Of a stretch of DNA of 40,019 nucleotides, positions 708 to 23,008 are shown piece by piece. The notes beneath the pieces were generated by a model, which had not been told where the DNA came from, ran no database searches, and saw nothing but the letters and a program-made list of their open reading frames with translations. Each line of letters begins with the position of its first letter. Within the stretch, counting starts at the first letter, position 1. Source of the DNA: a virus. The stretch spans positions 1 to 40,019 of the IMG/VR virus record IMGVR_UViG_3300034072_000784; one strand, written 5' to 3'. The position numbers and the translations under genes are program-made.

Positions 708-3392
708 GTGGCGGGACCGTGGGAAAGATACCAGCAACCGGGCCAGCCCCCTGCCGTCATTTATGGGGAACCTGACCCATTCAAGGCGTCCGCCGAAATT
801 CGTGCGGAGCGGTCCGCCAATCGTCAGGACGCGGCTGCTATCCGTGCGGCAGAGGCTTCCGACAGGGCAGCGGCAGCAGCAGAGCGAGCGGCGGCAACGG
901 ATGCGCGAAAGGTGGCAGCAGAAGAGCGCAAACTTGCCGCTGGTGGAGGGATTGACGCTACCGAGAGCGAGAGGACGGCGGCGTTTCTTGCCACTCGTGT
1001 AGCCAATGGGCTTGAAACGCTAAAGGGTATTGGTAGCGGTGGAGACGCCACGCTCGGCACTCGCATCGCTGAAAATCTGCCATTCGGGCTTGGTAATTAT
1101 GCCATCAGCGAGGATCGGCAAAGGGCCGCCACCGCGCAGTTGGACGTTCTGGATGCTGCGCTGACGCTGGGAACCGGAGCGGCCTATACCAAAGAGCAGA
1201 TTGAAGGATATCGTCAATCCTATTTCCCGCAGCCGGGGGATGGTGATGACGTTATTGCGGACAAGTCGGCCCGTCTGAAAGTCCTGCTTGAGGCTGCGCG
1301 GGTGAAGGCTGGCGCGGCGGCTCCGGCGATTGACCGGGCATTGGCCAATGCTGGAACGGACGCTCTGGCAGGCGCAGCCAAAGAGGAAACCGCCCCCGGC
1401 GACCGCAATGCCCTTATCAGCGCCACGCGCCGCGCAGATGGGCAGTATGATCTTGTGTGGGGTGATGGCCGCAAGCAAGTGTCGGACAGCATCCCTATGG
1501 CGTCCAGTGTCACGGCTGACATTGAGCCACCGCCTACAGACGAGGAACGCAATAGCGCGCTTGGGACGGTCGATGCTGTTGTGCGTGGTATAGCTGACAC
1601 GGTTACGCTTGGCTATGCAGACGAGATTGCGGCGGCTGGCAATACGCTCTTTGGCGGCGGCACCTATGACCAACAGCTTGCCCGCGAACGTGGCATTGAT
1701 CGTCAAGACGAAAGGGTTAATCCATATGCACGCTTGGGCGGACAGATCGCAGGCGGTTTTGCGCTTCCCACTGGAACGGCGACCGGGGCGCGAGGGCTGG
1801 CAAGGATCGGCGCACTATACGGCGCAGGATATGGGAGCGGGTCCGCAGAAGGATCGACAACCGACAGGCTTATCGGCGCTGCGCGGGGCGGTGCTACTGG
1901 CGCGCTCGTGGGCGGTGGATTGGGTGCAATCGGGTCGCGCTTTGCAGGGCGTGGCGGTGGTGGCGGCCCTAATGGTGGTGGGGCAAGCGCTCAAGATTTA
2001 GCGACCGCCGCACAACAGGAGGGTGTCCGGGTTAGTCGCCCTATCGTTGACCCAACGGCGCGACCGCGCATGGCCTACCTAGAGAGCAGTATCGGTGGAA
2101 GTGGGCGCGTTCGCGAGGGCTTGCAGAATACTCGCGACGATTTGGAAGCCCGTGTCACTAGCTTGGGGGATGGCGGGACTGTGCAGTCCCCCGGCATCAT
2201 CGGCCAGCGCGTTCAGGATGCGGCTGTCGGAGCGGATAAGGCTGCGCGCAATGTCGCGCGGCGGGACTATGAGCGCGCGGCGAAAATCGCCCCTGGTGCC
2301 AGGGTTACGGCGACTGAGGCCGTAGGCACTATTGACGGTCACATTCAGCGGTTGAGCGGCAACGCCAATAGCAACAAACCAATGATTGAATTCCTCGAAA
2401 ATGTGAAAGCTGATTTTGTTGGGCCGGACGGATTGCCGCGCGCTAAAACGATTGAGGAAATTCGTGACCTTCGCACGTCCCTGAATGATGAAATTAGCCG
2501 CTCCAACCTTAGCCGGACGCGGGCGGAGACGCTGGTTGAAGATGTAGTTAATGCGGCTAGCCAGGACATTACCCGTGAATTAGGGCAGCAGTCGCCAAAG
2601 GCTTTGGCCTTGTGGCAACGCGGTGACAAGAAGTGGGCGCAGTATAAAACGGACCAAAAGCAACTTACAAGCCTTGTGCTTGGACGGGCCGATGATCCAG
2701 TTAGCGGAGAGGCTGTATTTAATCGCTTGCGCACCATGGTTTCACAAAAAGGCGATGCTGATAAGGTCCAGCGGCTTTTCGATAAACTGCCAGACGATCT
2801 AAAGCGCGACTATGTGGCGACGGTGGCGGAAAGTTTAGGGCGTCGCGCGCCTGATGAGGATTTTTCACCAGCGCTGCTTGTCAGTGCGGCGCGCGGCTTT
2901 TCGGATGAGGCGGCGCAAACGATTTTTGGGCCAGATGGAGCGCGCTCCATCAAGAACCTGAAAATGCTTGCGGAGGCATATAAAAGCACAACCGGCGCGC
3001 TTAATAACACCCGCTCCGGCATGGTGGCGAATTGGGCTAATTTCTTCCGCGACATCGTTGGCGGCGGTTTCATTGGCACGATGCTGGGTGGGCCGGTTGG
3101 CGGCGCTACCGGCATTGCGCTGGGTGCAACGTCTGCCGCGCTAACCGCTGGCGCGCGCAATCTTTCGGCTAAGGCACTAATGAACCCCGATATGTCCAGA
3201 TGGTTGGCGGCGGCTCCGAGGGCTGCTTCTGGCGGCGCAATCAGCCGTCATATCGGAAGGCTGGATGAAATCGCCAAAAAGAACCCGGCAATTGCTCAGA
3301 ACGTCATTCAGTTGAAAGACGCCATTGTCCAGACGGTGAGAGGCGGAGGCCAACAGGCGGCTGCACAAGACACGCAATCAGGGCAAAGATAG
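708..3392 (+). CDS. large internal virion / DNA-ejection protein (894 aa, tape-measure-like)
   Basis: GTG start. It has an N-terminal Ala/Arg/Glu-rich helical region and two Gly-zipper hydrophobic segments (GGATGALVGGGLGAIG and GGGFIGTMLGGPVGGATGIALGA). It is the positional analogue of P22 gp16. Confidence 0.8.
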   Translation: MAGPWERYQQPGQPPAVIYGEPDPFKASAEIRAERSANRQDAAAIRAAEASDRAAAAAERAAATDARKVAAEERKLAAGGGIDATESERTAAFLATRVANGLETLKGIGSGGDATLGTRIAENLPFGLGNYAISEDRQRAATAQLDVLDAALTLGTGAAYTKEQIEGYRQSYFPQPGDGDDVIADKSARLKVLLEAARVKAGAAAPAIDRALANAGTDALAGAAKEETAPGDRNALISATRRADGQYDLVWGDGRKQVSDSIPMASSVTADIEPPPTDEERNSALGTVDAVVRGIADTVTLGYADEIAAAGNTLFGGGTYDQQLARERGIDRQDERVNPYARLGGQIAGGFALPTGTATGARGLARIGALYGAGYGSGSAEGSTTDRLIGAARGGATGALVGGGLGAIGSRFAGRGGGGGPNGGGASAQDLATAAQQEGVRVSRPIVDPTARPRMAYLESSIGGSGRVREGLQNTRDDLEARVTSLGDGGTVQSPGIIGQRVQDAAVGADKAARNVARRDYERAAKIAPGARVTATEAVGTIDGHIQRLSGNANSNKPMIEFLENVKADFVGPDGLPRAKTIEEIRDLRTSLNDEISRSNLSRTRAETLVEDVVNAASQDITRELGQQSPKALALWQRGDKKWAQYKTDQKQLTSLVLGRADDPVSGEAVFNRLRTMVSQKGDADKVQRLFDKLPDDLKRDYVATVAESLGRRAPDEDFSPALLVSAARGFSDEAAQTIFGPDGARSIKNLKMLAEAYKSTTGALNNTRSGMVANWANFFRDIVGGGFIGTMLGGPVGGATGIALGATSAALTAGARNLSAKALMNPDMSRWLAAAPRAASGGAISRHIGRLDEIAKKNPAIAQNVIQLKDAIVQTVRGGGQQAAAQDTQSGQR

Positions 3393-3460: not shown

Positions 3461-5176
3461 ATGGTAACGATCAATCTCCCGCCCCTGCCTATCAACCCGT
3501 TGGGCAACGCTGATACGGTAGCAGCCTTGCGCGCCATTCCTAGCGCAAATCTGGAGAACAACCAAGCCGTCGCTGTGGCTGGGAACATCTCGTCCGGTGA
3601 CGGCGAGGGCGGTATTTATATTTGGTCAGAACTGACGACTACCGCAGACAATGGCACGACGATCATTAAGCCGACTGACCGTCCGCCGCTTGAGGCTGGC
3701 CGCTGGATACTCGTATCCGGTGGTGTCGCGGGCGGCTTCTATGGCCCATCCGCACAGGAGTTTGTCGCGACAGAGGGGCAAACCGACTTTGTTATGCCTT
3801 TCGATCTTGTCACGACGCCGGTTGTATTTGTGAATGGCACAAGGCAGGCATCCGCTGATTTCACCTATTCCGGGGACACATTGACACTTGTCACCCCCGC
3901 GAACGACAGCGATATTGTCACCATACTGGCGGCAGATGACGCTTTATTGCCCTATACCACCATAGACCGGGTTTCTGGCCTGCAAGCTGCGCTGGATAGC
4001 AAGGCAACGCCCGCCTATATCAGCGGCGTTCTTGGGTCGCGCCGGGCCAATGTGCTTGATATTGCGGATTGGGACAAGACCGGCACAAATGATATGGCGT
4101 CCAGTTATCAGGCACTGGTAATTGAAGCCGCAGAGGCAGGCGTCCCGCTAGATTGCGTGGCTGGCAAGGCTCTTCTTGGATCAACAATTACGTTGCCAGG
4201 CGGACATGTGTTTGAGGGCGTAAATAGTGGCGCAATTTTTATTGATCCCACGAAAGCATCATCATTTCTGATTGCGCATAGCGGAAAGGGCTTTATTCGC
4301 AGCGGCGGCAGTAATGCGCCTGTCTCGATCACGAACCAGGTCACGGTCCGCAACCAGCCGACACCTGTCACCAGCGTTCCCTATGTCCCGAACGACCACG
4401 ACTTTGATTATTATTTCGCTGATATCTCCGACCTGAAAATGTCTCGCATCCTTACGCTAAATGCTACGCGCGGCATATACTTCAACGGCGGTCGCAACAA
4501 TATTCATGAGTGGGGAGGCCAGTGCTTCAAGACAGGGCTTCAAGTTGATTGGTCATATGATACTTGCGATATTCAAAGCATACATCTCTGGCCATATTGG
4601 AACCAATCAGAAGAAGTAAAAGAATATATGCAGGATAATCTAACCTCATTCCTGCTTAAAAGGGTTGATAATTCATTCTTCAACAGGATTTTTAGCATTT
4701 GGCACAGATATGGATTTTATATCGATTGGTTTGCGGGTGATGGTCCGACTAAGCCAGCGGGTACCACTTACAAACTGAAACTGTGTCAGGCGGACCTTGA
4801 TATCGGTGATTATCCATATTGGGTTGCGGCAGCAGCAGATGGCCACACGGCGAAATTCTCTCAGGTCACAGCGCAGGCCCGTGACGAGATTATCGCTTCG
4901 TCGCTGCTGACGGTCAACGGCCCTAATTGTCGCATCACTGGCGAGTTTGATGGAGCAGGAAGTGGTGGCAATGTCATCCTATGCACGGCGACGAGCGCTG
5001 GTGGCTTCCTTGATTTGGTCGCGAGTGGAAATAACTGGAATAGAACGGCAACCGGCTTCCCTGCTGTGGAGGTGGAGACTGGTGGAGCGCATGTTGACCT
5101 TTTGCCGGGATCGCGCTTTACCAACGGAAACGGCGGCGCGGTTTCGTCCGGCGATGTAACTGTATGGATACCTTGA
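3461..5176 (+). CDS. tailspike / tail fibre with probable beta-helix (pectate-lyase-like) domain
   Basis: 571-aa ORF downstream of the ejection genes. Sequence character is typical of depolymerase-type tailspikes. Fold not verified. Confidence 0.7.
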   Translation: MVTINLPPLPINPLGNADTVAALRAIPSANLENNQAVAVAGNISSGDGEGGIYIWSELTTTADNGTTIIKPTDRPPLEAGRWILVSGGVAGGFYGPSAQEFVATEGQTDFVMPFDLVTTPVVFVNGTRQASADFTYSGDTLTLVTPANDSDIVTILAADDALLPYTTIDRVSGLQAALDSKATPAYISGVLGSRRANVLDIADWDKTGTNDMASSYQALVIEAAEAGVPLDCVAGKALLGSTITLPGGHVFEGVNSGAIFIDPTKASSFLIAHSGKGFIRSGGSNAPVSITNQVTVRNQPTPVTSVPYVPNDHDFDYYFADISDLKMSRILTLNATRGIYFNGGRNNIHEWGGQCFKTGLQVDWSYDTCDIQSIHLWPYWNQSEEVKEYMQDNLTSFLLKRVDNSFFNRIFSIWHRYGFYIDWFAGDGPTKPAGTTYKLKLCQADLDIGDYPYWVAAAADGHTAKFSQVTAQARDEIIASSLLTVNGPNCRITGEFDGAGSGGNVILCTATSAGGFLDLVASGNNWNRTATGFPAVEVETGGAHVDLLPGSRFTNGNGGAVSSGDVTVWIP

Positions 5177-10917: not shown

Positions 10918-11138
10918 TCCACCTCCCAAGGCTCAAAGGCCCGCTGAACGTCATCATAAGCGGCGACATAAGCGCGCTCGACCGGAGCCATGGCTTCGAT
11001 CCAATAGCGGTAATGCTCATCCTCATGATAGCTAGCGCCAAGCGGGCCACCATGCGACGGCTGCAAAATCTCCTGCACAATGTCGGCAAGATCGCGGGTC
11101 GAGCATGACGCGAGAAATGCGTATATTTCGGGTTTCAT
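10914..11138 (-). CDS. hypothetical acidic protein (74 aa)
   Basis: ATGA overlap with the upstream gene. Confidence 0.6.
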   Translation of the reverse strand: MKPEIYAFLASCSTRDLADIVQEILQPSHGGPLGASYHEDEHYRYWIEAMAPVERAYVAAYDDVQRAFEPWEVE

Positions 11139-11860
11139 GCGGCCTCCAACAGTTCAATGAGTTTTTCCGCCTGACTGATACGAGCGGCGGCACGGGCGTC
11201 GGCACGGGCGGCGGCATAGGCGGCATCGGCGGCGGCATCGGCGGCACGGGCGGCGGCATAGGCGGCACGGGCGGCGGCATCGGCGGCACGGGCGGCGGCA
11301 TAGGCGGCACGGGCGGCGGCATAGGCGGCACGGGCGGCGGCATCGGCGGCACGGGCGGCGGCATAGGCGGCACGGGCGGCGGCATAGGCGGCATCGGCGG
11401 CGGCATCGGCGGCATCGGCGGCATCGGCGGGAACCTCTACCCCATTCGCTTTGTCAGAAACGATCTTTAGTGCAGGGGCACAAGAGGCTCGCACGTCATC
11501 GGTCCCATGTTCACGCAGCACGTCATCAATCAGCCAGTGAAGAAATTTCCACGATACCAGCGACAGGTCGGCACCGATGCGCGGGGCATTGATAACCGCC
11601 TGCGGAAAGTCCTTCGCCTTTTCGTTCGGCAGACCCTCGAAAATACCCTCCGCAATGCGCGTAAGCATGATCGGGAAACCCGTCAATTCCTGAACCGAAT
11701 TAACGCTATCGCTATGGGCAATGCAGCCGATAAAGCAGCCCTTTCCGTTTTCCCAATAGCGCCCCTGGATAATCTCGTCCGCTGCCGTATGCGCGTTGAC
11801 TTGCGCCCGCACCATTTCGGCAAGCGCCGGATCGTTGTTGAAAGCAGTGTATTTCATCAT
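11135..11860 (-). CDS. early protein with globular N-domain and C-terminal alanine heptad-repeat tail
   Basis: AAGGAGGGA SD lies upstream. The C-terminus reads (A-Y/D-A-A-A-R/D-A) about 12 times and is followed by ISQAEKLIELLEAA. Confidence 0.75.
   Translation of the reverse strand: MMKYTAFNNDPALAEMVRAQVNAHTAADEIIQGRYWENGKGCFIGCIAHSDSVNSVQELTGFPIMLTRIAEGIFEGLPNEKAKDFPQAVINAPRIGADLSLVSWKFLHWLIDDVLREHGTDDVRASCAPALKIVSDKANGVEVPADAADAADAAADAAYAAARAAYAAARAADAAARAAYAAARAAYAAARAADAAARAAYAAARAADAAADAAYAAARADARAAARISQAEKLIELLEAA
11183..11429. repeat. tandem 21-bp repeat (about 12 units, with 63-bp higher order)
   Basis: The + strand unit is GGCGGCATAGGCGGCACGGGC, with ATA/ATC and ACG/ATC variants. 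All six frames are open here. Confidence 0.9.
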
Positions 11861-13970: not shown

Positions 13971-14366
13971 TTATGTAGCATAAGGGTTCGGCTCTGTCCA
14001 CCTTACGCCGTTGCGACCGCCCCATTCATAAAGCAGTTCAACCAGCCCGCTAAACTGCGCCACGGTAAGCGTTGAGGATCGCAGTCCAACCGGGAATGAG
14101 CCTTGCCCCTCAAGTGTCGGTAGAAATCGCATTTCCACCCCCAGGGCGTTCATGAAGCGGTTCTTTATGTCCTCCGGGCTGTACGCGGCCATTTCAGGCA
14201 CTTGATTGCGGATATCGCGAATGAGGCTCCAAAGCTTTCTGTTCTGGGCGTCACGGCGTGTTTCCGCTGCGATCTTGACGACATAACCGTCTGGCGCCTC
14301 CATGACTAGCCGCTGGGCGTGTTCGCGTTGACGCTGGCCGGTGAGGCGGACTGATTTGGCTTTCAT
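13971..14366 (-). CDS. ninB: NinB/Orf-like recombination mediator
   Basis: 131 aa and ATGA-coupled. Sequence character (QNRKLWSLIRDI...) and its position in the recombination module fit the NinB family. Assignment from memory. Confidence 0.6.
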   Translation of the reverse strand: MKAKSVRLTGQRQREHAQRLVMEAPDGYVVKIAAETRRDAQNRKLWSLIRDIRNQVPEMAAYSPEDIKNRFMNALGVEMRFLPTLEGQGSFPVGLRSSTLTVAQFSGLVELLYEWGGRNGVRWTEPNPYAT

Positions 14367-14707
14367 GTCCTCGTCTTCTCCTGCCGTATCTCAGCCGCCT
14401 TGGGGCTTGCCTTGGCAAACTCATCCGCTAACGCCTGCATGTCTATGCCGTGCGCCTTTTCAAAGGATCGCTCACCGACAGAGTGCTGCTCTTGGTGATG
14501 GTGCGAACACAGGCTTATGCAGCACCAGTCCGGGGGCTTAAAACCCATGCCGCCCTGCCCGCCAATCCTGACATGCGCAGCCTCGATAGGCCGCCTGTCG
14601 CAATTGGGAACGCAGCACTCATGGGAGCGTATGAATGAAAGATGCGCCGGACTTCTCCAGCGCTTCTCCTTCTTGGGTTGCTTGGGGATGCGACGGGGAA
14701 GTGTCAT
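14363..14707 (-). CDS. DUF968 / HNH-like Cys-His nuclease-family protein
   Basis: It contains SPAHLSFIRSHECCVPNC...EAAHVR...ISLCSHHHQEQH, a Cys/His pattern. Confidence 0.65.
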   Translation of the reverse strand: MTLPRRIPKQPKKEKRWRSPAHLSFIRSHECCVPNCDRRPIEAAHVRIGGQGGMGFKPPDWCCISLCSHHHQEQHSVGERSFEKAHGIDMQALADEFAKASPKAAEIRQEKTRT

Positions 14708-14916
14708 TCAGACTTTTCCGCAAAGTCGATAATTTCGGTTGGCACGTTGCGTTTCGCCTGCGCACAGACTTGCAACTGCACCTTAACCGTGCGTAGGATT
14801 TCCCGTGCCTGCGCGGCGACAGCATCACCTTGGCCGGGAAGCATATTATCCTCCTTAACAGCATTGAGCGTTTCCCACAGGGCTTCCTTGAGGCTAACAG
14901 CCGACAGCTTTTTCAT
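14704..14916 (-). CDS. hypothetical 70-aa protein
   Basis: Internal ATG of the track ORF 14704..15021. ATGA coupling to the downstream gene. Confidence 0.55.
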   Translation of the reverse strand: MKKLSAVSLKEALWETLNAVKEDNMLPGQGDAVAAQAREILRTVKVQLQVCAQAKRNVPTEIIDFAEKSE

Positions 14917-15418
14917 ATTCCCGTTTCCTTTTCTGAGTTTTGCAAAGTGTCCCGCGCTCTGAATAAATTTCGTAGCGGCTGGCGCGCTCAGCCACTTCCG
15001 TTTCCAATTCCTGCAAGGCAAGGAACGCCTCCGCGAAAGGGCCGTAAAATTTCACAGCCCTATGCTTGCGGTCGTATTCCTTCTTCCATTCTTTATATTC
15101 AGGGCGGCGGCAGTATTCGACATGCTGGGGCATTCGTCTCCGCCTCGCCTCGCGTTCCTTTTCACGATCCGCCGTTCTCCGATAATAGGCAGCTTTTTTA
15201 GCTTTCAGCTTTTCGGCTTCACGTTCTCGATACATGCGGTCATATTCTGCTTTCTCGGCAACCTTTTGAGCTTTTGATTTTTCGATACGCCGATCAAGCC
15301 CAAAGCAAGTTCTATTGCAAAACAGCTTCATGCCTTTTGCGACCGACCTATTTACATGGCAAGCCTCTCGCATGATTTTGGTATTGCAATGAGAGCATTG
15401 GGCTTGAACCAAAGCCAT
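14894..15418 (-). CDS. Lys/Arg/Glu-rich protein with N-terminal zinc-ribbon-like Cys pairs
   Basis: It contains CSHC...(about 25)...CNRTC followed by a highly charged helical region. TAATG coupling to ssb. Confidence 0.65.
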   Translation of the reverse strand: MALVQAQCSHCNTKIMREACHVNRSVAKGMKLFCNRTCFGLDRRIEKSKAQKVAEKAEYDRMYREREAEKLKAKKAAYYRRTADREKEREARRRRMPQHVEYCRRPEYKEWKKEYDRKHRAVKFYGPFAEAFLALQELETEVAERASRYEIYSERGTLCKTQKRKREYEKAVGC

Positions 15419-16561: not shown

Positions 16562-17185
16562 TCAGTACGGAACCTGATCGTTCAATTCTTCCTCGCTGGC
16601 CGCGATGGTATTAGGCCTCTTCCGCAGCACAGACATGGCATCAGCGAATTGACTGGCAGACAGTTCGGCTACCGCCTTGACTGCATACCCCTTGCAGATG
16701 GCTTGCGGATCAGTACCCGTCCGATCAATCTCAGCCTGAATTTTGGCAAGCTGATCCTTGTTGATGGTGACGGACTTTCGCTGCTCATCGGCTTTCGGCG
16801 GATTGGCAGTCGCCGCATTACCATCGTCATCCTCCGGGCAAATCCCGAAAGCCGTCATCAGCGAATATCGGCGAGCATACGTCAATGCGCTGCCATAACC
16901 CTGCGCATCCTGCTTGCTGGCCGGGACAAACAGCTTGCCAAACGACATACTCTCGCCGCCTGAGTGATGCACGACCGTTTCAACGCACACACCGCCCGAT
17001 TGCTCATGGGTGATTTGCGCGAAGAAAAGTCCGTTCTCTACCAGAGCGGGCTTGATCGCGCTGGCCACGCTTTCGAGGTCAGCGTAACGTGATTTGAAAT
17101 GCGGGTTGCTGCTATCCTTCTTAGCGCCCTCCATGGCAGCGAACGCCTTGGCCATTGCAGGATATAGCCCTGTTTGGGTTGTCAT
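16562..17185 (-). CDS. erf: ERF-family single-strand annealing protein
   Basis: It contains NPHFKSRYADLESV and GSALTYARRYSL, which are ERF hallmarks. SD is AAGGAGGAAGT. Confidence 0.85.
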   Translation of the reverse strand: MTTQTGLYPAMAKAFAAMEGAKKDSSNPHFKSRYADLESVASAIKPALVENGLFFAQITHEQSGGVCVETVVHHSGGESMSFGKLFVPASKQDAQGYGSALTYARRYSLMTAFGICPEDDDGNAATANPPKADEQRKSVTINKDQLAKIQAEIDRTGTDPQAICKGYAVKAVAELSASQFADAMSVLRKRPNTIAASEEELNDQVPY

Positions 17186-17487
17186 ACTTCCTCCTTACCT
17201 AATGCTTTTGCGATGGCTTCCCGAATGAGTGGAAGAGAACCGCTGTCCGGCCTTGCCGACTTAATGACGAACTGCGCAGCGAGCAGAGCCTCGAGCAAAT
17301 CCGGCGCGGCGGCGATTAGATGGGCGTTTCGTAACTGCTTAAGAGCCGCTGTCATGGTCAATTCCTGGCCAATCGTAAGGCCTACAACAACTTCATCAAC
17401 CTTCATCCCATCGGGCCGCATCGGGCCGATCCAGAGCATTTCGCGGGTTTGTTCAATGCCCCACGATTTCAGCGTAAAATCGCTCAT
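17182..17487 (-). CDS. hypothetical protein (101 aa)
   Basis: Strong SD AGGAGGAAGT directly upstream of ATG 17487, and ATGA coupling to erf. The longer track ORF (to 17760) only adds the alternative Ala-Thr repeat frame. Confidence 0.7.
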   Translation of the reverse strand: MSDFTLKSWGIEQTREMLWIGPMRPDGMKVDEVVVGLTIGQELTMTAALKQLRNAHLIAAAPDLLEALLAAQFVIKSARPDSGSLPLIREAIAKALGKEEV

Positions 17488-17521
17488 ACTTCCTCCTATT
17501 GAATGACAAATATAATCCTCG

Positions 17522-17537
17522 CGGGGCGTTAGCCCCG
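17522..17537 (-). promoter_or_regulatory. GC hairpin between the Gly-Tyr ORF and the next gene
   Basis: CGGGGC-gtta-GCCCCG, 5 nt after the TAA of the Gly-Tyr ORF. On the minus strand it is followed by an A/U-rich stretch. Confidence 0.4.
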
Positions 17538-17542
17538 TCCGG

Positions 17543-17776
17543 TTATACTTGCTCGCCGTAGCCGGAGCCGTCGCCGTAGCCGTAGCCGTAGCCGTAGCCG
17601 GAGCCGTAGCCGTAGCCGTAGCCGTCGCCGTAGCCGGCTCCGGAGCCGTAGCCGTAGCCGTAGCCGGAGCCGTAGCCGTAGCCGTAGCCGTCGCCGTAGC
17701 CGTAGCCGTAGCCGGATCCGTAGCCGTAGCCGGAAACTCCAAACTCCTGACTGCTACCATATAGCAGCGCCGCCAT
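17543..17776 (-). CDS. Gly-Tyr dipeptide-repeat microprotein (77 aa)
   Basis: ATG lies 2 nt after the upstream stop, with its own TAA followed by a hairpin and the next gene's SD. Codons are GGC/TAC (GC3-rich), unlike the alternative frames. By my count it has 32 Gly and 21 Tyr. Confidence 0.55.
   Translation of the reverse strand: MAALLYGSSQEFGVSGYGYGSGYGYGYGDGYGYGYGSGYGYGYGSGAGYGDGYGYGYGSGYGYGYGYGDGSGYGEQV
17555..17733. repeat. hexanucleotide tandem repeat (about 30 units of GCCGTA on the + strand)
   Basis: Read directly. Interspersed GCCGGA, GCCGTC and GGCTCC variants keep the 6-nt register. Confidence 0.9.
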
Positions 17777-17777
17777 G

Positions 17778-18158
17778 TTATCGGCCCTGAACCTTGGCGC
17801 TAGACCAAGCCTTTACTGCCGCAGGATCGACGCTGAATATCGCAGTAACACCCTCAAGCGAAAGCGACGGAGCGGTTGCGCTGATTTTGCAATCCTTCGT
17901 CGGCCCCTTCTCAGCAAGGCCGAATACGCCGCCAACATCAGCCGACCAGTACAGGCACATGCGAGCATCAGTCAGTTTGATCGGGCGCGCTTCGACATTG
18001 TTGGTATAGCCAAACACCACGCCGCGCTTATCGGTACATACAACGACCGGAACAGCTTCGTGTTCGTCAGATACTGCATGGGCTGGAACCGCCTGAACGC
18101 CGCCAAACATGGCGGCGATTTGCTTCAACTGGCCGTAAGTGAGATTGTCGATTTCCAT
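17778..18158 (-). CDS. hypothetical protein, first gene of the leftward operon (126 aa)
   Basis: AAGGAGGAAGAAA precedes ATG 18158. The longer track ORF start (18212) lies in the promoter region. Confidence 0.7.
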   Translation of the reverse strand: MEIDNLTYGQLKQIAAMFGGVQAVPAHAVSDEHEAVPVVVCTDKRGVVFGYTNNVEARPIKLTDARMCLYWSADVGGVFGLAEKGPTKDCKISATAPSLSLEGVTAIFSVDPAAVKAWSSAKVQGR

Positions 18159-18184
18159 TTTCTTCCTCCTTGGTTGGTGACGCC

Positions 18185-18253: not shown

Positions 18254-18712
18254 ATGACGGAAGCCCAATACAAGATTTTGCAGCTACTCCGCGAAAGTGG
18301 AAGTGTGACGCCGACTTATCGTGAAATGGCGAACCATCTGGAATGGAAGTCGCACGGAGGCATTAAGGCTGTGATAGATGCCTTGGTAGACCGCGGTTAT
18401 GTCAAGCGTATCAATGGCAAGGCTCGCGGCCTCCGTGTCATCAAAGAAAAGTTACCATGGCTTCCGATTGAAACCGCGCCGAAGGATGGCAGTGAATTTC
18501 TTAGCTATGGTGGACCTGACAATGTGAAAGGAAAAGTGCAGCCGACGCGGTGGCTGTCGCCTGGGCCATACACGACGGAAAACGGGAAAAATTCAGAAGG
18601 ACAGCGCAGATATCAGTATCCAGATGGTTTTTATTGGGCTGGGTATGATGGGTTTGTCGGCCCTGTCCGCCCCACTAAGTGGATGCCTTTGCCGGATGCC
18701 CCCAGTGATTAA
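18254..18712 (+). CDS. LexA-type winged-helix DNA-binding domain fused to DUF551-like domain (no S24 peptidase domain)
   Basis: AAGGAGG SD. The N-terminus (LTEAQYKILQLLRESGSVTPTYREMANHL...ALVDRGYVKR..ARGLRV) resembles the LexA DBD. The C-terminus carries ETAPKDG...TKWMPLPDAP. Confidence 0.75.
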   Translation: MTEAQYKILQLLRESGSVTPTYREMANHLEWKSHGGIKAVIDALVDRGYVKRINGKARGLRVIKEKLPWLPIETAPKDGSEFLSYGGPDNVKGKVQPTRWLSPGPYTTENGKNSEGQRRYQYPDGFYWAGYDGFVGPVRPTKWMPLPDAPSD

Positions 18713-19061
18713 CATCACCCTGCCATATCCGCCCAGCGAACTGCGCCCCAACAAATCGCGCACTCGTTACTGGCGTAAGAACGCTGACACGGCCCGCGCT
18801 TTCAAGGCGCTGTGCCAAGTCGAGTTACGCGCTCAGGGTGTCGGCAAGGTTGATGCAGCCCGCCTGCATATATCGCTGACCTACTGCGCCAAGGATCGTT
18901 CGCGCAGGGATTTGGATGCCGACCTAGCGGCCAGCAAGGCAATGATTGATGCCTTGTCCGATGCACTTGGCGTTGATGACCAACATTTCAGCTACAGTTT
19001 GTTTCGCGGCCAGCCGGTAAAGGGTGGAGCCGTTAACGTGGTTATTACGGAGGAAGGATGA
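18696..19061 (+). CDS. rusA: RusA-like Holliday junction resolvase
   Basis: It contains RRDLDADLAASKAMIDALSDALGVDDQHF, the RusA Asp-rich catalytic pattern. Start is ATG 18696 or GTG 18705. Confidence 0.75.
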   Translation: MPPVINITLPYPPSELRPNKSRTRYWRKNADTARAFKALCQVELRAQGVGKVDAARLHISLTYCAKDRSRRDLDADLAASKAMIDALSDALGVDDQHFSYSLFRGQPVKGGAVNVVITEEG

Positions 19062-19474
19062 TGAGCCAAGTAAATCGCTATCTCGAAGACAAGGCAATGG
19101 ATCACATGGACCATGCGCTTGGCCGCCCGGTCGATCCTCGCGCTGAAACGTACCGCAATTACTTCTACGTGATTGGCGAAACCGATCTGCGCCGCGAGTT
19201 GGCATCGTCCCCGTATTGGCAGAGCAATGGGAAGACCAGAGAGGGGGAGTATTTCTCAGTCACTGCGGAAGGTCGTGAGGCGCTGGCTTCACACCTCAAG
19301 GCCATAGGTGACAGGCATAAACGCTGGGTCGTTTCATATGCTGGCTACCAGATGGAGGTTGTCGCTATATCGCGGGCCAAAGCGCGCTATTCCAAGTGGC
19401 TGGAAATCAGCGATGTCAATGATAGCCTGACGTTTGGTGAGTTTCAGCGAAAAAGCAAAGTGAGGTTGGTATGA
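19058..19474 (+). CDS. hypothetical protein (138 aa)
   Basis: ATGA-type overlap with the rusA stop. Confidence 0.65.
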   Translation: MMSQVNRYLEDKAMDHMDHALGRPVDPRAETYRNYFYVIGETDLRRELASSPYWQSNGKTREGEYFSVTAEGREALASHLKAIGDRHKRWVVSYAGYQMEVVAISRAKARYSKWLEISDVNDSLTFGEFQRKSKVRLV

Positions 19475-19599
19475 CCCCCCTACCAACAAGGCGCTCACAT
19501 GCGCAGTCTAGGCTACACAATCGATATATGTCCCTACCCTTTTGGAACGACAGCCAGGGTTGGGTGGATCAATGGATATGTGAACGGAGGAAGGTATGA
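19471..19599 (+). CDS. hypothetical 42-aa protein
   Basis: ATGA overlaps at both ends. A competing 37-aa ORF exists at 19499..19612 in another frame. Confidence 0.3.
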   Translation: MTPLPTRRSHAQSRLHNRYMSLPFWNDSQGWVDQWICERRKV

Positions 19600-19868
19600 A
19601 GCGAACAATTGAAATTGATGTTCCGATCACACCTCGCGAGCTAGCTGAAGCCTTTTGCGACATGATGGCAGATGAGCAGGAGCAGTTTCTTGCGCAGGTT
19701 TATGACATTGCGAAAACATGGCCCGGTGCCGGTTGGTGCCGACAGTCATGCAGTATCGTCCAATGCGCCACCCCATATGCCATAGAAACCATCCGCACAC
19801 TCGCCAGCCACCTTCCCAAAGAGGATGTGGAATGGATCGTAGCAGCGTCACAGGATGGCTCGTCATGA
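19596..19868 (+). CDS. hypothetical protein (90 aa)
   Basis: GGAGGAAGG SD lies upstream of the ATG. Confidence 0.7.
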   Translation: MKRTIEIDVPITPRELAEAFCDMMADEQEQFLAQVYDIAKTWPGAGWCRQSCSIVQCATPYAIETIRTLASHLPKEDVEWIVAASQDGSS

Positions 19869-20032
19869 CCACCCATGACAGCCTTTTAAAGGTGATAAGC
19901 TATACCATAGCCAACGCCTCCCCAAAGGCAGAGCAGAAGAAAGTGATAATCTTCTGCCAGGAAGCGGGTTTGCTTACCCTGACGGAGATGCACCGGCTGA
20001 TACGGGCTTATGGGCTGTCCGGTATTGCCTAG
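19865..20032 (+). CDS. hypothetical 55-aa protein
   Basis: ATGA overlap. It uses an internal ATG of the track ORF 19718..20032. Confidence 0.5.
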   Translation: MTTHDSLLKVISYTIANASPKAEQKKVIIFCQEAGLLTLTEMHRLIRAYGLSGIA

Positions 20033-20053
20033 CCGGATAATGTAGGGTATCTG

Positions 20054-20100
20054 GGGCGGGCGGGGATCGCGACTTCCACGAAGCGACCACCCGCCCTTTA
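20054..20100 (+). terminator. candidate terminator/attenuator hairpin
   Basis: GGGCGGG...CCCGCCC outer stem with an inner TCGC/GCGA stem, followed by TTTAT. Confidence 0.3.
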
Positions 20101-20174
20101 TCAACGCCTGAGAAGGAGGCGACTGACTTGTTTGTAATACCCAAATGCCGTCTTTTGTTCAAGGCCATTTTGGC

Positions 20175-20618
20175 ATGAGCAAGAAGCCATCGCACATTCC
20201 GCTTTTCCCAGATGCGTATCATCGTGACACCACGCACCTCACCACCGAGGAGCATGGCGCATATCTTTTGCTGCTTATGGCTGCATGGGGAAATGATGAC
20301 TGCTCTCTACCATCAGACGAGAAGCGACTGGCGGCTTTAGCAAAAATGCCGGTTCAGAAATGGAAGAAGATAGCACCCACCATACTTGAGTTCTGGAAGC
20401 TTGAAAACGGACGACTTACACAAGGCCGTTTGCTCAAAGAATGGTCCTATGTGAATGCCAGAAGGTCTAAGCGAAAAGAGGCCGCCGAAGCCCGCTGGGA
20501 CCGATCCAAATGCAATGCAAATGGATATGCAAATGGAATGCACCTTGGTGGAGGTGGAGGTGGAGGTGTTTCTAGCCGAGGTATAAACATTGATGATATA
20601 GGAGGCAGTGAGTTTTAA
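20175..20618 (+). CDS. DUF1376 (YdaU-like) replication-associated protein
   Basis: It contains FPDAYHRDTTHLTTEEHGAYLLLLMAAW, the DUF1376 N-terminal pattern. ATG 20145 is an alternative start. Confidence 0.75.
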   Translation: MSKKPSHIPLFPDAYHRDTTHLTTEEHGAYLLLLMAAWGNDDCSLPSDEKRLAALAKMPVQKWKKIAPTILEFWKLENGRLTQGRLLKEWSYVNARRSKRKEAAEARWDRSKCNANGYANGMHLGGGGGGGVSSRGINIDDIGGSEF

Positions 20619-20619
20619 C

Positions 20620-22110
20620 ATGCACGGCACCATGACAAAGACGCTGCGCCCGCATCAGGTGCGCGCCATCGAGATGCTCCGCAATTCCATTCGCGGCAAG
20701 AAAAGGCGGCCAGTCCTGAAACTGCCGACCGGCGCAGGGAAAACCCTCATTGCGACAAAGATCATTGCTAACGCCCGCGAGCGTGGCAACAGGGTCTTGT
20801 TCATCGTGGACGCCATCGAACTGATCGACCAGACGGTTAACGCATTTTACGGCGAAGGGCTTTCGGGCATCGGCGTAATTCAGGCAAACCACCAGATGAC
20901 GGATTATTCCCGCCCCATTCAGATCGCATCAGTCCAGACGCTGGCTCGTCGCAAGCCGCCAGAATTTGACATGGCGATAGTTGACGAATGCCACGCGCAA
21001 TACGCTGCCATTCGCGAACTGATGGACCAAAACCCCGGAAAGATTTTTATCGGGCTGTCCGCGACGCCATGGAGCAAGGGTCTTGGCCTGCTGTATGATG
21101 ATCTGATTGAACCGGCCACAATCCGCGATCTTACCGAGTTGGGCTATGTCGCAAAGCTGCAAGCCTATGCGCCGTCGCATCCCGACCTGACTGGGGTGAA
21201 GGTTCGGGCTGGCGAGTATCAGGAGGAGCAGCTTTCAAAGGTCATGCGCGGCGAAAAGCTGGTGGCCGATATCGTGGAGACATGGAAGCGGCTTGGTGAC
21301 AACCGGCCAACATTTTGCTTCTGCGTTGACCGCGCCCATGCTGCGGCCATGCAAGAGCGGTTTCAGCGGGAGTGGATCGGTTGCGGCTACATCGACGGAA
21401 TGACGGAGGCCCGCGAGCGTAAGGCGATCAAGGCCCAGCTTGACGCCGGAGAAATTCAGATCGTTGTTTCGGTTGGGACGATGATCAAGGGCGTTGACTG
21501 GAAAATCGGGACCATCATCGACGCACAGCCGACGAAAAGCCCGATGCGTCATGTCCAGAAGCTGGGACGGCTGCGCCCTTTCCCTGAGTGGGAGTATGCG
21601 CTGGTCCTCGACCATAGCGACAACATCCTTCGCTTGGGCCTGCCTATCGACATTCACCGCGATACGCTCTGCACGAAAAAGAAGGGCGAAAAGGGCGATG
21701 CCGAGGCGATGATGACCAAGCAGCCAACGGGATGCCCAGCCTGCGGTCAGGTCAGGTCTGATCGATCCAAGGCTTGCCCATGCGGTTTTGTGCCAAAGGT
21801 GCAAGGCGCGGATATTGAGGAGGGAGCGGGTTCCCTTGCGCTGGTGAATGGTGACAAGGCTGGCCCCAAAAAGCAGAAGGCCACGCCAGCGGAAAAGGCG
21901 CAATTCTTCGCCGAAATGCTGGGATATGCCAAGGAGAAGGGAAAGAAGGATAGCTACGCGCTCGCCGTGTTTCGCGAGAGGTATCAGGAATGGCCGCACA
22001 AGAAAAACGGGGTTCAGCCCGTAGAGCCGAGCATTGAAACCCGGATGTATATCCAGGCAAAGAATATAAGATGGAGCAAGGGAAAGGGGCGAAGCGATGC
22101 AAAGCGCTAA
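20620..22110 (+). CDS. superfamily-2 DEAD/DEAH-box helicase with C-terminal zinc ribbon
   Basis: It contains PTGAGKT (Walker A), VDECH (Walker B), LSATPW, QKLGRLRP and CPACG...CPCG. GTG 20608 is an alternative start. Confidence 0.85.
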   Translation: MHGTMTKTLRPHQVRAIEMLRNSIRGKKRRPVLKLPTGAGKTLIATKIIANARERGNRVLFIVDAIELIDQTVNAFYGEGLSGIGVIQANHQMTDYSRPIQIASVQTLARRKPPEFDMAIVDECHAQYAAIRELMDQNPGKIFIGLSATPWSKGLGLLYDDLIEPATIRDLTELGYVAKLQAYAPSHPDLTGVKVRAGEYQEEQLSKVMRGEKLVADIVETWKRLGDNRPTFCFCVDRAHAAAMQERFQREWIGCGYIDGMTEARERKAIKAQLDAGEIQIVVSVGTMIKGVDWKIGTIIDAQPTKSPMRHVQKLGRLRPFPEWEYALVLDHSDNILRLGLPIDIHRDTLCTKKKGEKGDAEAMMTKQPTGCPACGQVRSDRSKACPCGFVPKVQGADIEEGAGSLALVNGDKAGPKKQKATPAEKAQFFAEMLGYAKEKGKKDSYALAVFRERYQEWPHKKNGVQPVEPSIETRMYIQAKNIRWSKGKGRSDAKR

Positions 22111-23008
22111 GGAGATTTGCCGGGGCAAGTGGCATTCTATCCTGCCGCAATGCGGCGTCTCGCCCAAATTCCTCACCGGCAAGCAGACCCCTTGCCCATC
22201 GTGCGAAGGGAAAACACGCTTCCGCTTCGATGATCAGGAGGGGCGTGGAACGTGGTTCTGCAACAAGTGCGGGGCAGGCGATGGGTTCATGCTCATTTCA
22301 CTTGTGAAGGGCATCCCCAATCGCGAGGCGGTCAAGGCGGCGGTTCAATTGGCCGGTGAAGCGGAATTTCGCAAGCCGCGTCAATTGATGGATCAGGAGG
22401 AGGCTCATCGCAAAATGCGTGAGGTTTGGTCCATGAGCCGACCAATAACTCCCGAAGATGACGCTGGGCGCTATTTGAGGCACCGTAGGACGCCGATACC
22501 GACCTGTGATAGCCTTAGGTACGTCCCGATGCTTTCGGTGTCTGGTGAGGCTGTGAGAGGCTTTCCGGCCATGGTGGCAAGGGTGAGGGATAGCCGGGGT
22601 GCATCGTGCAACATACACCGGACATATTTGCTCGACGGAAAAAAGGCTCCAATCCAATCTCCGCGCAAGCTAATGGCTACCGGAAACGCTCCTAAGGCAG
22701 AGGGGTGTCGCATTGAGTTATTCGACGCAGCGGAGGAGATGGGTATCGCCGAGGGGATCGAGACGGCGCTAAGGGCGGCTGATATTTTTGGGCTTCCTGT
22801 CTGGTCGGCCATCAGTAGCGGGCACCTTGAGCAATTCCAGCCTCCAGCGATCGTGAGAAGACTGCATATTTTTGGCGATGCGGATTTGAAATTCGGCGGG
22901 CAGAAATCCGCTTACGCCTTGGCCCACCGGCTAGCCTGCGCGAAGAACCCGATAGGTATTGAGGTCCATATCCCTGACACGCTTGGCACGGATTGGGGCG
23001 ACCAATGA
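22097..23008 (+). CDS. DNA primase (zinc-ribbon + Toprim)
   Basis: It contains GKWHSILPQCGV...CPSCEGKTRFRFDD...FCNKCG, then IAEGIETAL...IFGDAD, a Toprim-like acidic motif. Confidence 0.8.
   Translation: MQSAKEICRGKWHSILPQCGVSPKFLTGKQTPCPSCEGKTRFRFDDQEGRGTWFCNKCGAGDGFMLISLVKGIPNREAVKAAVQLAGEAEFRKPRQLMDQEEAHRKMREVWSMSRPITPEDDAGRYLRHRRTPIPTCDSLRYVPMLSVSGEAVRGFPAMVARVRDSRGASCNIHRTYLLDGKKAPIQSPRKLMATGNAPKAEGCRIELFDAAEEMGIAEGIETALRAADIFGLPVWSAISSGHLEQFQPPAIVRRLHIFGDADLKFGGQKSAYALAHRLACAKNPIGIEVHIPDTLGTDWGDQ

Follow-up and report, generated by a model that had tools for sequence, protein, structure and literature searches.

A long hexanucleotide array in the early region of a phage genome raises a simple question: is it a gene, and if so, what might its product do? 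We addressed this for the window, the whole 40,019-nt stretch of viral DNA that was analysed (IMG/VR record IMGVR_UViG_3300034072_000784). A sequence-only reading had proposed that the array encodes a Gly-Tyr dipeptide-repeat microprotein placed directly upstream of a small gene and the ERF, exonuclease and SSB genes. Our analysis indicates that the array lies within a real gene, the second member of a two-gene cassette that recurs across hundreds of phage contigs and that we could not find described. Its partner is the upstream gene, which encodes a DUF6948 protein with a predicted Sm/LSm-like fold. The arrangement of the locus is given below.

Table. Features of the Gly-Tyr repeat locus and its neighbours in the window.
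Coordinates	Strand	Feature	Product or extent
18254..18712	+	Divergently transcribed gene with a LexA-type winged-helix domain	
17778..18161	-	DUF6948 gene, first gene of the cassette and of the leftward early operon	127 aa
17543..17776	-	Gly-Tyr dipeptide-repeat protein gene	77 aa, about 7.7 kDa, pI about 4.05
17732..17776	-	Leader, MAALLYGSSQEFGVS	15 aa
17555..17732		Hexanucleotide array, GCCGTA on the + strand and GGCTAC on the minus strand; in codon register the tract is 17552-17731	29.7 copies
17506..17552	-	RNA hairpin spanning the stop codon and the intergenic spacer	
17182..17487	-	Downstream gene with its own strong Shine-Dalgarno sequence, AGGAGGAAGT	101 aa

The observation itself was confirmed. 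Tandem Repeats Finder (TRF) identified an array of period 6 with 87% matches and 0% indels, and the minus-strand ORF encodes the leader, 29 G-X dipeptides (20 GY, 5 GS, 3 GD and 1 GA), and then GEQV and TAA, exactly the counts first given. Three details required correction. The ATG is separated from the TAA of the upstream gene by 1 nt (C at 17777) rather than 2 nt. The remark that the array uses G/C-ending codons like the rest of the genome is only half right: ordinary genes in the window prefer TAT over TAC (109:48) and use GGC for only 49% of Gly codons, while the array uses TAC in 20 of 20 cases and GGC in 28 of 32. The array is therefore more uniform than the genome, as would be expected if one DNA unit was amplified. 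Finally, the rule that a GS or GD interrupts the run after about every third GY holds in this window but not across the family. The hairpin described after the stop codon is present (-24.8 kcal/mol, z = -2.6), although it has no T-run on the coding strand, no minus-strand terminator-like site was found, and it has no Rfam match; it is not a classical terminator.

Is the tract read as Gly-Tyr? Several lines of evidence support this frame over the alternatives. Exact (GGCTAC)4 occurs in more than 119 viral contigs, almost always as an open G-[Y/D/S/N] ORF, and the same kind of tract recurs in hundreds of independent phage contigs, in the same frame and the same gene position. In the Gly phase, 98.7% of codons encode Gly, with synonymous variants making up 8.0% and nonsynonymous variants 1.3%. 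At the X position TAC, GAC, TCC and AAC make up 90% of codons, while CAC, TTC and TGC each account for 0.6% or less, although each is also one mutation from TAC. Some lineages use TAT, GGG or GGT units and still encode Gly-Tyr. In addition, the tract is fused in frame to conserved domains on both sides, and in 110 close relatives of one such class it is 7-87 aa long and always of the same parity. The downstream gene matches phrog_1273 end to end from ATG 17487 (residues 2-100 against profile positions 6-102 of 103), which argues against a fusion between it and the array. Relatives have different downstream genes, so this gene is not a conserved part of the cassette.

We next asked what the repeat gene travels with. 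Of 129 such tracts, 95 lie directly downstream of a DUF6948 gene on the same strand; most of the rest sit at contig ends, and 20 tracts cannot be assessed. In the reverse direction, 73 of 80 loci chosen by DUF6948 alone carry a G-X repeat ORF next to it, and 5 more begin one before the contig ends. A family-wide DUF6948 alignment was too divergent for locus finding, and one clade was used instead. The start codon lies within -22 to +11 nt of the DUF6948 stop in 109 of 111 pairs. Because the relative frame differs between loci and every locus has its own start codon, programmed frameshifting or readthrough fusing the two genes can be rejected as a general mechanism. The leader carries a clade-specific motif (two hydrophobic residues, x, G, then often P or E) that is shared with relatives, as in the syntenic leaders MAEMIYGDKP and MAKLLQGTAEEF, and leader class follows DUF6948 clade, although this co-variation could reflect shared ancestry alone. 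A scan of GTDB species genomes gave only 7 loci, all from MAGs with unreliable host assignment; all assessable MAG loci have the repeat ORF, but we make no host claim beyond the cultured phages.

The upstream gene is a clear member of Pfam DUF6948 (PF22253; 81.9 bits against a cut-off of 27, E = 3.6e-23, profile positions 3-85 of 85), and all 120 homologues listed carry this domain. Its AlphaFold2 (AF2) model (pLDDT 85) contains a helix at residues 9-18 followed by a five-stranded, strongly bent beta-sheet, and the top 50 Foldseek matches in the PDB are all Sm/LSm proteins, with target-normalised TM-scores up to 0.67 and an rmsd of about 3 Å over about 79 columns. This assignment rests on fold only. 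Foldseek E-values are modest (8e-4 to 1e-2) and query-normalised TM-scores are 0.35-0.48, while a Pfam search at E <= 0.1 returned only DUF6948 and a weak DUF2110 hit, with no match to LSM or Hfq, and a profile search of PDB sequences found nothing at E <= 10.

The repeat protein, in contrast, is predicted to be disordered (AF2 pLDDT 36, with no secondary structure). Family-wide, the X position is occupied by Tyr (47%), Asp (25%), Ser (14.5%) and Asn (8.4%), and Lys and Arg together occupy only 18 of 5214 X positions. The order of X residues is close to random: Tyr run lengths approach a shuffled null and autocorrelation is about 0, so a fixed supra-repeat such as (GY)3-G[SD], and with it a defined repeating fold, is not supported. 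The median pI of the DUF6948 domain is 8.5, but its charge does not co-vary with the acidity of the tract (rho = 0.10, p = 0.20).

Tract length changes quickly, and only in 6-nt steps. Comparison of related genomes, which had been proposed beforehand as a check of the coding frame, showed that relatives differ widely in repeat number and always keep the frame. An identical DUF6948 protein is followed by a 77-aa ORF on one contig and a 131-aa ORF on another, and five Barba phage isolates of one species carry three alleles that differ only by two separate 6-nt indels and one Y/N substitution. The locus thus shows the repeat-number polymorphism of a phase-variable contingency locus but not its on/off switch, as slippage of a 6-nt unit changes length and not frame. 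Both genes are transcribed early in the lytic Rheinheimera phage Barba18A, which carries the same cassette and in which gp017 and gp018 peak at the first time point. In the window, the divergent gene with its LexA-type domain (Pfam LexA_DNA_bind, E = 2.6e-8) marks the cassette as the promoter-proximal end of the leftward early operon, and the 99%-identical contig L132 has the same arrangement.

We found no Pfam, PHROG, NCBIfam or PADLOC family and no paper that describes the repeat protein. PHROGs, NCBIfam and PADLOC gave nothing for the repeat protein, for DUF6948 or for the fused domains, and PDB sequence searches gave nothing for the two common fused C-terminal domains. A megablast search of the 4.1-kb region against 50,697 phage records found no match, and tblastn with a Gly-Tyr protein found nothing because the low-complexity filter removes it. 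A word-indexed protein search with the window protein gave at least 8,000 candidates, all unnamed hits that were useful only for seeing architectures. Pfam returned sub-threshold matches to KRTAP (18.2 bits against a cut-off of 21.1) and TrAA12 (17.7 against 30.9), which are compositional only. Literature searches on the peptide strings, on DUF6948 and DUF7666, and on fibroin heavy chain in phages found no description of the family.

The sequence-only interpretation was therefore supported in part. It was right that the array encodes a Gly-Tyr dipeptide-repeat microprotein, rather than an Ala-Thr or Ala-Val product or an extension of the downstream gene, and that no such phage family appears to have been described. 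The suggested link to recombination genes is loose, however, with ERF lying within 3 kb in only 11 of about 115 loci, and the conserved partner, DUF6948, had been used only as a landmark. The functional ideas offered (condensate, toxin, decoy) remain hypotheses, while a microcin-like role is unlikely.

We are now able to propose a tentative model. The analysis establishes that the 77-aa ORF is a genuine protein-coding gene and the second gene of a conserved phage cassette; that it encodes a clade-specific leader and an acidic, tyrosine-rich tract, almost free of lysine and arginine and predicted to be disordered; that selection acts on the composition of this tract and not on the order of its residues; that its length changes by gain and loss of whole hexanucleotide units; and that the pair is transcribed early in a lytic phage. 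Everything beyond this is inference, including translation as seen directly, contact between the two proteins, oligomerisation of DUF6948, nucleic-acid binding and self-assembly. In our favoured reading, which is our best guess but still less likely than not, the leader docks the chain onto the DUF6948 barrel, which probably forms an oligomer, and the tract acts as a flexible tail supplied in trans, with many weak binding sites, tyrosines serving as stickers and Gly/Ser/Asn/Asp as spacers that keep it soluble. This would resemble the Gly/aromatic or Arg-Gly tails that Hfq and Sm proteins carry in cis. Such a tail would drive self-association of the complex (condensate, gel or fibril), or compete with nucleic acid on the mildly basic partner, or both, and in other phages the same tract would tether additional C-terminal domains to the same leader. 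Several observations sit uneasily with this view, among them the lack of co-variation between DUF6948 charge and tract acidity noted above. DUF6948 and the repeat are never fused into one polypeptide among the best 150 hits listed, out of 905 family clusters, which is unexpected if the tail simply works like a cis tail, and with 25% Asp the tract should resist the amyloid assembly seen for pure (GY)n peptides.

A more speculative and rather unlikely extension is that phages of diverse Proteobacteria encode a minimal two-part kit for building a membrane-less compartment. Here an Sm-like oligomer would bind phage or host RNA or ssDNA, and the separately encoded Gly-Tyr chain would dock on it through its leader and drive condensation around early replication and recombination intermediates. 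Hexanucleotide slippage would then act as a fast evolutionary dial on phase behaviour, with optional C-terminal domains recruited as clients, in a bacterial-virus counterpart of LSm/P-body or FUS-type granules.

Among the alternatives, the one that survives best, although we consider it unlikely, is a nucleic-acid mimic or anti-defence decoy, in which Asp stands in for phosphate and Tyr for base, and the chain blocks a host DNA- or RNA-binding protein such as a RecBCD-type nuclease, a restriction system or another defence sensor, with DUF6948 as carrier or co-factor. The acidity of the tract, its early and promoter-proximal position, its frequent proximity to ERF, exonuclease, SSB or NinB genes, where phages keep Gam- or Abc-type inhibitors, and its rapid turnover in repeat number and composition, which would reflect an arms race, are consistent with this. 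However, there is no similarity to any known anti-defence or DNA-mimic protein and no PADLOC context, known mimics are folded proteins with fixed charge spacing whereas here the order of residues is close to random, and the idea does not explain the obligatory, predicted Sm-like partner or the fused C-terminal domains.

Two further readings are less likely still, and equally so. The chain could be a self-assembling fibril or toxic host-takeover peptide, forming cross-beta or polyglycine-II type assemblies that disturb a host structure, with DUF6948 as the chaperone or antidote that keeps it soluble until needed. The fibril formation of short (X-Tyr)n peptides, the tight spacing of the genes (if translational coupling sets a controlled stoichiometry) and the separate polypeptides fit this view, but a quarter of X positions are Asp and hydrophobic residues are selected against, both of which favour solubility, lengths from 7 to 87 aa are tolerated within one protein class, and no structure is predicted. 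Alternatively, the tract could be a largely passive, protease-resistant linker or entropic bristle whose length drifts because the microsatellite is unstable, the functional parts being the leader, the optional C-terminal domain and DUF6948. In the fusion classes it does sit between a conserved leader and a conserved domain, its length varies about 12-fold, and it lacks positional order or periodicity. In the window and in most loci, however, nothing is attached to the tract apart from 2-10 residues, and its composition is tightly constrained (about 45% Tyr, with H, F, C, K and R excluded) in a way that a neutral Gly/Ser linker would not need.

A RiPP- or microcin-like precursor, with DUF6948 recognising the leader, is very unlikely. 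The short conserved leader and repetitive Gly-rich core suggest such an architecture, but no modification enzyme, protease or exporter recurs within 3 kb in about 115 loci (apart from DUF6948, the recurrent neighbours are ERF, YqaJ-type exonuclease, SSB, ATPase, methylase and HNH genes), the predicted barrel is not the winged-helix fold of known leader-recognition elements, and many members carry large C-terminal domains. Least likely of all is a DNA- or RNA-level element or an Ala-Thr reading, for although five of the six frames of a perfect array are open and Y/D/N changes would, by inference from the codons, be silent in the Ala-Thr frame, GCC would then appear at the variable Ala codon only 0.5% of the time in G+C-rich genomes whose ordinary genes use it freely, third-position changes in Gly codons would become nonsynonymous, only the Gly-Tyr frame has a start codon coupled to DUF6948 and conserved termini, and there is no Rfam match.

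The implications are substantial in scale. DUF6948 comprises 905 clusters at 50% identity, one clade alone is found on 557 viral contigs, and one fusion class of the repeat protein adds 1,633 clusters at 90% identity. While low-complexity, tyrosine-rich proteins are central to condensate biology in eukaryotes, they are barely known in phages, and an almost pure dipeptide repeat kept under selection for composition while its length changes by microsatellite slippage is an unusual gene product. The question is experimentally accessible, as cultured systems exist in Rheinheimera phage Barba18A (with RNA-seq data), Rhodobacter phage RcapNL and Ralstonia phage NK-7. More practically, the arrays break metagenome assemblies, attract misleading annotations and are invisible to BLAST searches that filter low-complexity sequence.

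Finally, comparison with known systems places the cassette in context. The closest is Hfq of Acinetobacter, in which an Sm core carries a long GGFGGQ-repeat C-terminal domain with an acidic tip that is needed for function and whose repeat number matters. Both combine an Sm fold, predicted in our case, with a redundant, glycine/aromatic, disordered repeat and acidic residues, but here the unit is a G-[YDSN] dipeptide on a separate polypeptide, and DUF6948 has no sequence similarity to Hfq or LSM. Eukaryotic SmB/SmD1/SmD3 and LSm4 likewise pair an Sm barrel with a Gly-X dipeptide-repeat tail that mediates interactions and assembly, although those Arg-Gly tails are basic and fused in cis, while the phage tract is acidic, aromatic and separately encoded. 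FUS-family [G/S]Y[G/S] low-complexity domains share tyrosine stickers in a Gly/Ser/Asn spacer background, predicted disorder and a dependence on composition rather than residue order, and GYG and SGY motifs occur throughout the window protein; the phage tract differs in its strict two-residue register, its 25% Asp and lack of Gln, its length of only 40-140 aa and its bacterial virus context. The same dipeptide chemistry is seen in the synthetic prion-inspired heptapeptides GYGYGYG, SYSYSYS and NYNYNYN, which self-assemble into fibrils with polar zippers (PMC8163036, PMC11093263), but these are uncharged, whereas the natural tracts are 5-20 times longer and interrupted by Asp. High glycine-tyrosine keratin-associated proteins, lamprin and silk fibroin, the source of the GenBank labels 'lamprin' and 'fibroin heavy chain-like protein' given to homologues, are extracellular animal structural proteins that resemble the tract in composition only, without homology. 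Acidic DNA-mimic phage proteins such as Ocr, Gam and T7 gp5.9 are also small, early and very acidic, and some are encoded next to recombination genes, but they are folded, with fixed charge geometry, and have no repeat, no Tyr enrichment and no Sm-like partner.

The hexanucleotide array and the open reading frame described in the sequence-only reading were recovered, and that observation holds. Tandem Repeats Finder reports a period-6 array of 29.7 copies with 87% matches and no indels, and the minus-strand ORF that contains it reads MAALLYGSSQEFGVS, followed by 29 G-X dipeptides (20 GY, 5 GS, 3 GD, 1 GA), then GEQV and a stop codon. The ATG lies 1 nt after the TAA of the upstream gene. A stable hairpin (-24.8 kcal/mol, z = -2.6) spans the stop codon and the spacer, with no T-run and no Rfam match. 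The next gene is preceded by a strong AGGAGG and matches phrog_1273 over its whole 101 aa from its own ATG, and an extension of this gene by an Ala-Thr repeat from the ATG at 17760 is therefore not supported. The earlier claim that the array shares the codon preferences of the rest of the genome requires correction, since ordinary genes in the window prefer TAT over TAC (109:48) and use GGC for only 49% of Gly codons, while the array uses TAC 20/20 and GGC 28/32. The array is thus more uniform than the genome, as amplification of a single DNA unit would produce.

Coordinates of the features discussed, in the window unless another sequence is named
Feature	Sequence	Coordinates	Strand
Hexanucleotide array	window	17555-17732	
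Gly-X array	window	17552-17731	
Gly-Tyr repeat ORF	window	17543-17776	-
Hairpin spanning the stop codon and spacer	window	17506-17552	
Start codon of the downstream phrog_1273 gene	window	17487	
DUF6948 gene	window	17778-18161	-
Second repeat protein (241-aa ORF)	window	11135-11860	-
Tandem repeat within the second repeat protein	window	11200-11422	
Surrounding lambdoid-style early region	window	13971-15418; 18624-23008	-; +
Locus with a heptapeptide-repeat protein after the DUF6948 gene	L129 (a relative)	4359-4700	+
Repeat gene homologue	L135 (Ralstonia phage NK-7)	2153-2566	
Repeat gene homologue	L145 (Myoviridae sp. ctOK67)	2734-3048	

The array is not unique to this virus. An exact search for (GGCTAC)4 in IMG/VR found at least 119 contigs, and in nearly all of them the Gly-Tyr frame is an ORF encoding G-[Y/D/S/N] dipeptides. 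Most of these ORFs encode stand-alone proteins of 60-150 aa with a few recurring types of N- and C-terminus, while others are in-frame fusions to a conserved C-terminal domain of about 154 aa (IKSFNG...HHRLTGSCxxGRxxFA), to a second C-terminal domain (AFWRS...LHAT), to an N-terminal 'GAC' domain or, in one case, to DUF7666. Neither Pfam, PHROGs, NCBIfam nor PADLOC has a model for the repeat protein or for these domains, apart from DUF7666. The 154-aa domain, which is fused to many Gly-Tyr tracts, is itself a large family, with 1,633 clusters at 90% identity and no hit in Pfam, PHROG, NCBIfam or PDB sequences. Many metagenome contigs end inside the Gly-Tyr array, including one that is 99% identical to the window and stops 24 codons into the gene. 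The arrays therefore act as assembly breakpoints, and counts of complete cassettes are underestimates.

The reading frame is settled. In 199 distinct arrays, 98.7% of the 6,403 codons in the Gly phase encode Gly, with synonymous non-GGC codons making up 8.0% and nonsynonymous codons only 1.3%, whereas neutral mutation of GGC would give about two nonsynonymous changes for every synonymous one. At the X position TAC is 44%, GAC 24%, TCC 15% and AAC 8%, yet CAC, TTC and TGC, each also one mutation from TAC, are each 0.6% or less. This excludes the Ala-Thr frame, in which the variable base would be the third position of an Ala codon and GCC would be almost absent, although ordinary genes in the window use GCC freely (165 of 636 Ala codons). 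Loci chosen through the neighbouring gene, and so without bias from the DNA pattern, show arrays that are internally uniform, and some of these lineages use TAT, GGG or GGT units and still encode Gly-Tyr. The peptide is what is conserved, not the DNA. The strongest evidence comes from 110 close relatives (C-terminal domain at least 72% identical) of the class with the 154-aa domain, in which the tract sits between a conserved 13-20-aa leader and the conserved domain and ranges from 7 to 87 aa, with all 110 lengths sharing the same parity. Three of the four common X residues (Tyr, Asp and Asn) are encoded by NAC codons, which are read by queuosine-modified tRNAs. The C-ending codon is used about 90% of the time within arrays, against about 50-58% in neighbouring genes, although this may be only a by-product of unit amplification.

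The conserved partner of the repeat gene is the gene upstream. Clustering of every ORF within 3 kb of the repeat ORFs gave one dominant family, present in 82 loci on the same strand and abutting the repeat ORF, which includes the window gene identified as Pfam DUF6948 (E = 3.6e-23). Using a profile of that cluster, 95 of 129 tracts have DUF6948 immediately upstream, 20 cannot be judged because fewer than 400 nt of sequence lie upstream, 4 belong to repeat-DUF6948-repeat arrangements or have the DUF6948 gene downstream, and several of the remaining 9 are second or third tandem repeat genes. Some phages carry two or three repeat genes in this way, either flanking a single DUF6948 gene or in tandem, with near-identical leaders, which suggests local duplication of the repeat gene. 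The association also holds in the other direction. Of 80 viral loci chosen only through one DUF6948 clade (557 were found), 73 have a G-X repeat ORF directly downstream, 5 run off the contig but begin one, and 2 have degenerate versions, while every assessable relative of the window gene in viral contigs and MAGs has one as well. In one relative the DUF6948 gene, 52% identical to that of the window, is instead followed by a heptapeptide-repeat protein, (G[DN]VTGL[YS])n, and the slot may accept other repeat types.

The start codon of the repeat gene lies within -22..+11 nt of the DUF6948 stop codon in 109 of 111 pairs, with ATGA, TAATG or a 1-nt gap as typical junctions, an arrangement that points to coupled translation. 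Beyond the pair the flanks vary, and include ERF, terminase small subunit, SSB, NinB and others. The two-gene cassette is therefore the unit, and the recombination genes are not part of it. The interpretation offered in the sequence-only reading is thus supported in part: the Gly-Tyr frame was correctly chosen, but the neighbouring ERF, exonuclease and SSB genes from which a recombination or replication role was suggested do not belong to the conserved cassette. In the window these genes form part of a lambdoid-style early region, with NinB, a DUF968/HNH protein, SSB, an exonuclease and ERF on the leftward strand, and a LexA-type regulator, a SNF2/DEAD-type helicase and a primase with zinc-ribbon and Toprim domains on the rightward strand. 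The window contains no tRNA genes. It does encode a second repeat protein, a 241-aa ORF ending in about 10 heptads of AA[Y/D]AAAR encoded by a 21-bp repeat of 10.6 copies with 93% matches. Two other frames across this repeat are also open (PMPPPVP and GGTGGGI), and the protein gives only weak PHROG hits of unknown function and no Pfam hit.

DUF6948 gives a confident AF2 model (pLDDT 85) with an N-terminal helix, five strands, one inserted helix and a C-terminal helix. All 50 best Foldseek matches in the PDB are Sm/LSm proteins, with E-values of 8e-4 to 1e-2, target-normalised TM-scores reaching 0.67 and an rmsd of about 3 A over about 79 columns, while matches in the viral structure library are other DUF6948 proteins together with entries labelled Sm-like or RNA-binding. 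We found no sequence-level link to LSM or Hfq, and therefore refer to the protein as Sm-like in predicted fold only. The family has 905 clusters at 50% identity, and in the best 150 hits listed nearly all are proteins of 90-130 aa in which the domain ends at the C-terminus, so that the domain is not fused to the repeat in any of them.

The repeat protein, by contrast, is predicted by AF2 to be fully disordered (pLDDT 36). It is acidic (pI about 4.05), and K+R occupy only 18 of 5214 X positions. The order of X residues is close to random, and the interruption after about every third GY that was noted in the window is not seen across the family. Selection therefore acts on composition, as in low-complexity domains built from stickers and spacers. 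Leader motifs strictly follow DUF6948 clades, with LTLD|G found with one clade, FRPV|G with another, and the window type (two hydrophobic residues, x, G, then often P or E) with the clade of the window, whether or not a C-terminal domain is attached. This fits a model in which the leader docks on DUF6948, but it also fits simple co-inheritance.

Tract length varies between close relatives. The same DUF6948 protein, 100% identical, is followed by a 77-aa repeat ORF on one contig and by a 131-aa ORF on another, and syntenic relatives of the window (DUF6948 69-74% identical) have repeat proteins of 44-112 aa. The cassette occurs in cultured phages, namely 115 Rheinheimera 'Barba' isolates, Rhodobacter phage RcapNL and Ralstonia phage NK-7. 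Five Barba isolates carry three alleles, which differ only by two independent 6-nt indels and one TAC/AAC change. In published RNA-seq of Barba18A, gp018 (DUF6948) and gp017 (the repeat gene) belong to the early/replication cluster and peak at the first time point. In the window the cassette is the promoter-proximal end of the leftward operon, divergent from the LexA-type regulator gene, and the contig that is 99% identical to the window has the same layout.

The coding frame, the pairing with DUF6948, the compositional constraint, the variation in length and, in Barba18A, the early transcription are shown by these analyses, while any function of the two proteins, including docking, oligomerisation, nucleic-acid binding and self-association, is inferred. 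Our preferred reading, which we hold only tentatively, is that the leader docks the chain on a DUF6948 oligomer, and that the Gly-Tyr tract would act as a low-complexity tail supplied in trans. Such a tail would promote self-association, or compete with nucleic acid on the mildly basic partner (median domain pI 8.5), or both. Several points count against this reading: fusions of the two proteins are absent from the hits examined, charge does not co-vary between them, and 25% Asp should oppose amyloid formation. Among the alternatives, a nucleic-acid mimic or anti-defence decoy is less likely but survives best. A fibril or toxin with a dedicated chaperone and an essentially passive linker are both doubtful, and equally so. 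A RiPP-like precursor is very improbable, and a non-coding element or a product of the Ala-Thr frame more so still.

We found no paper that describes these proteins or either DUF (DUF6948 or DUF7666). The GenBank labels 'fibroin heavy chain-like protein' and 'lamprin' carried by the homologous repeat genes of Ralstonia phage NK-7 and Myoviridae sp. ctOK67 are artefacts of compositional similarity and are misleading. The pair is a widespread and apparently undescribed module, which we consider new in kind as a system, although its function is at present a matter of inference, and its resemblance to known systems is by analogy only. The closest precedents are Acinetobacter Hfq, whose GGFGGQ repeats and acidic tip are needed for function, the RG tails of Sm proteins, and short (X-Tyr)n peptides, which self-assemble into fibrils. 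If the analogy with Hfq proves correct, the cassette would instead count as a split form of a known design.
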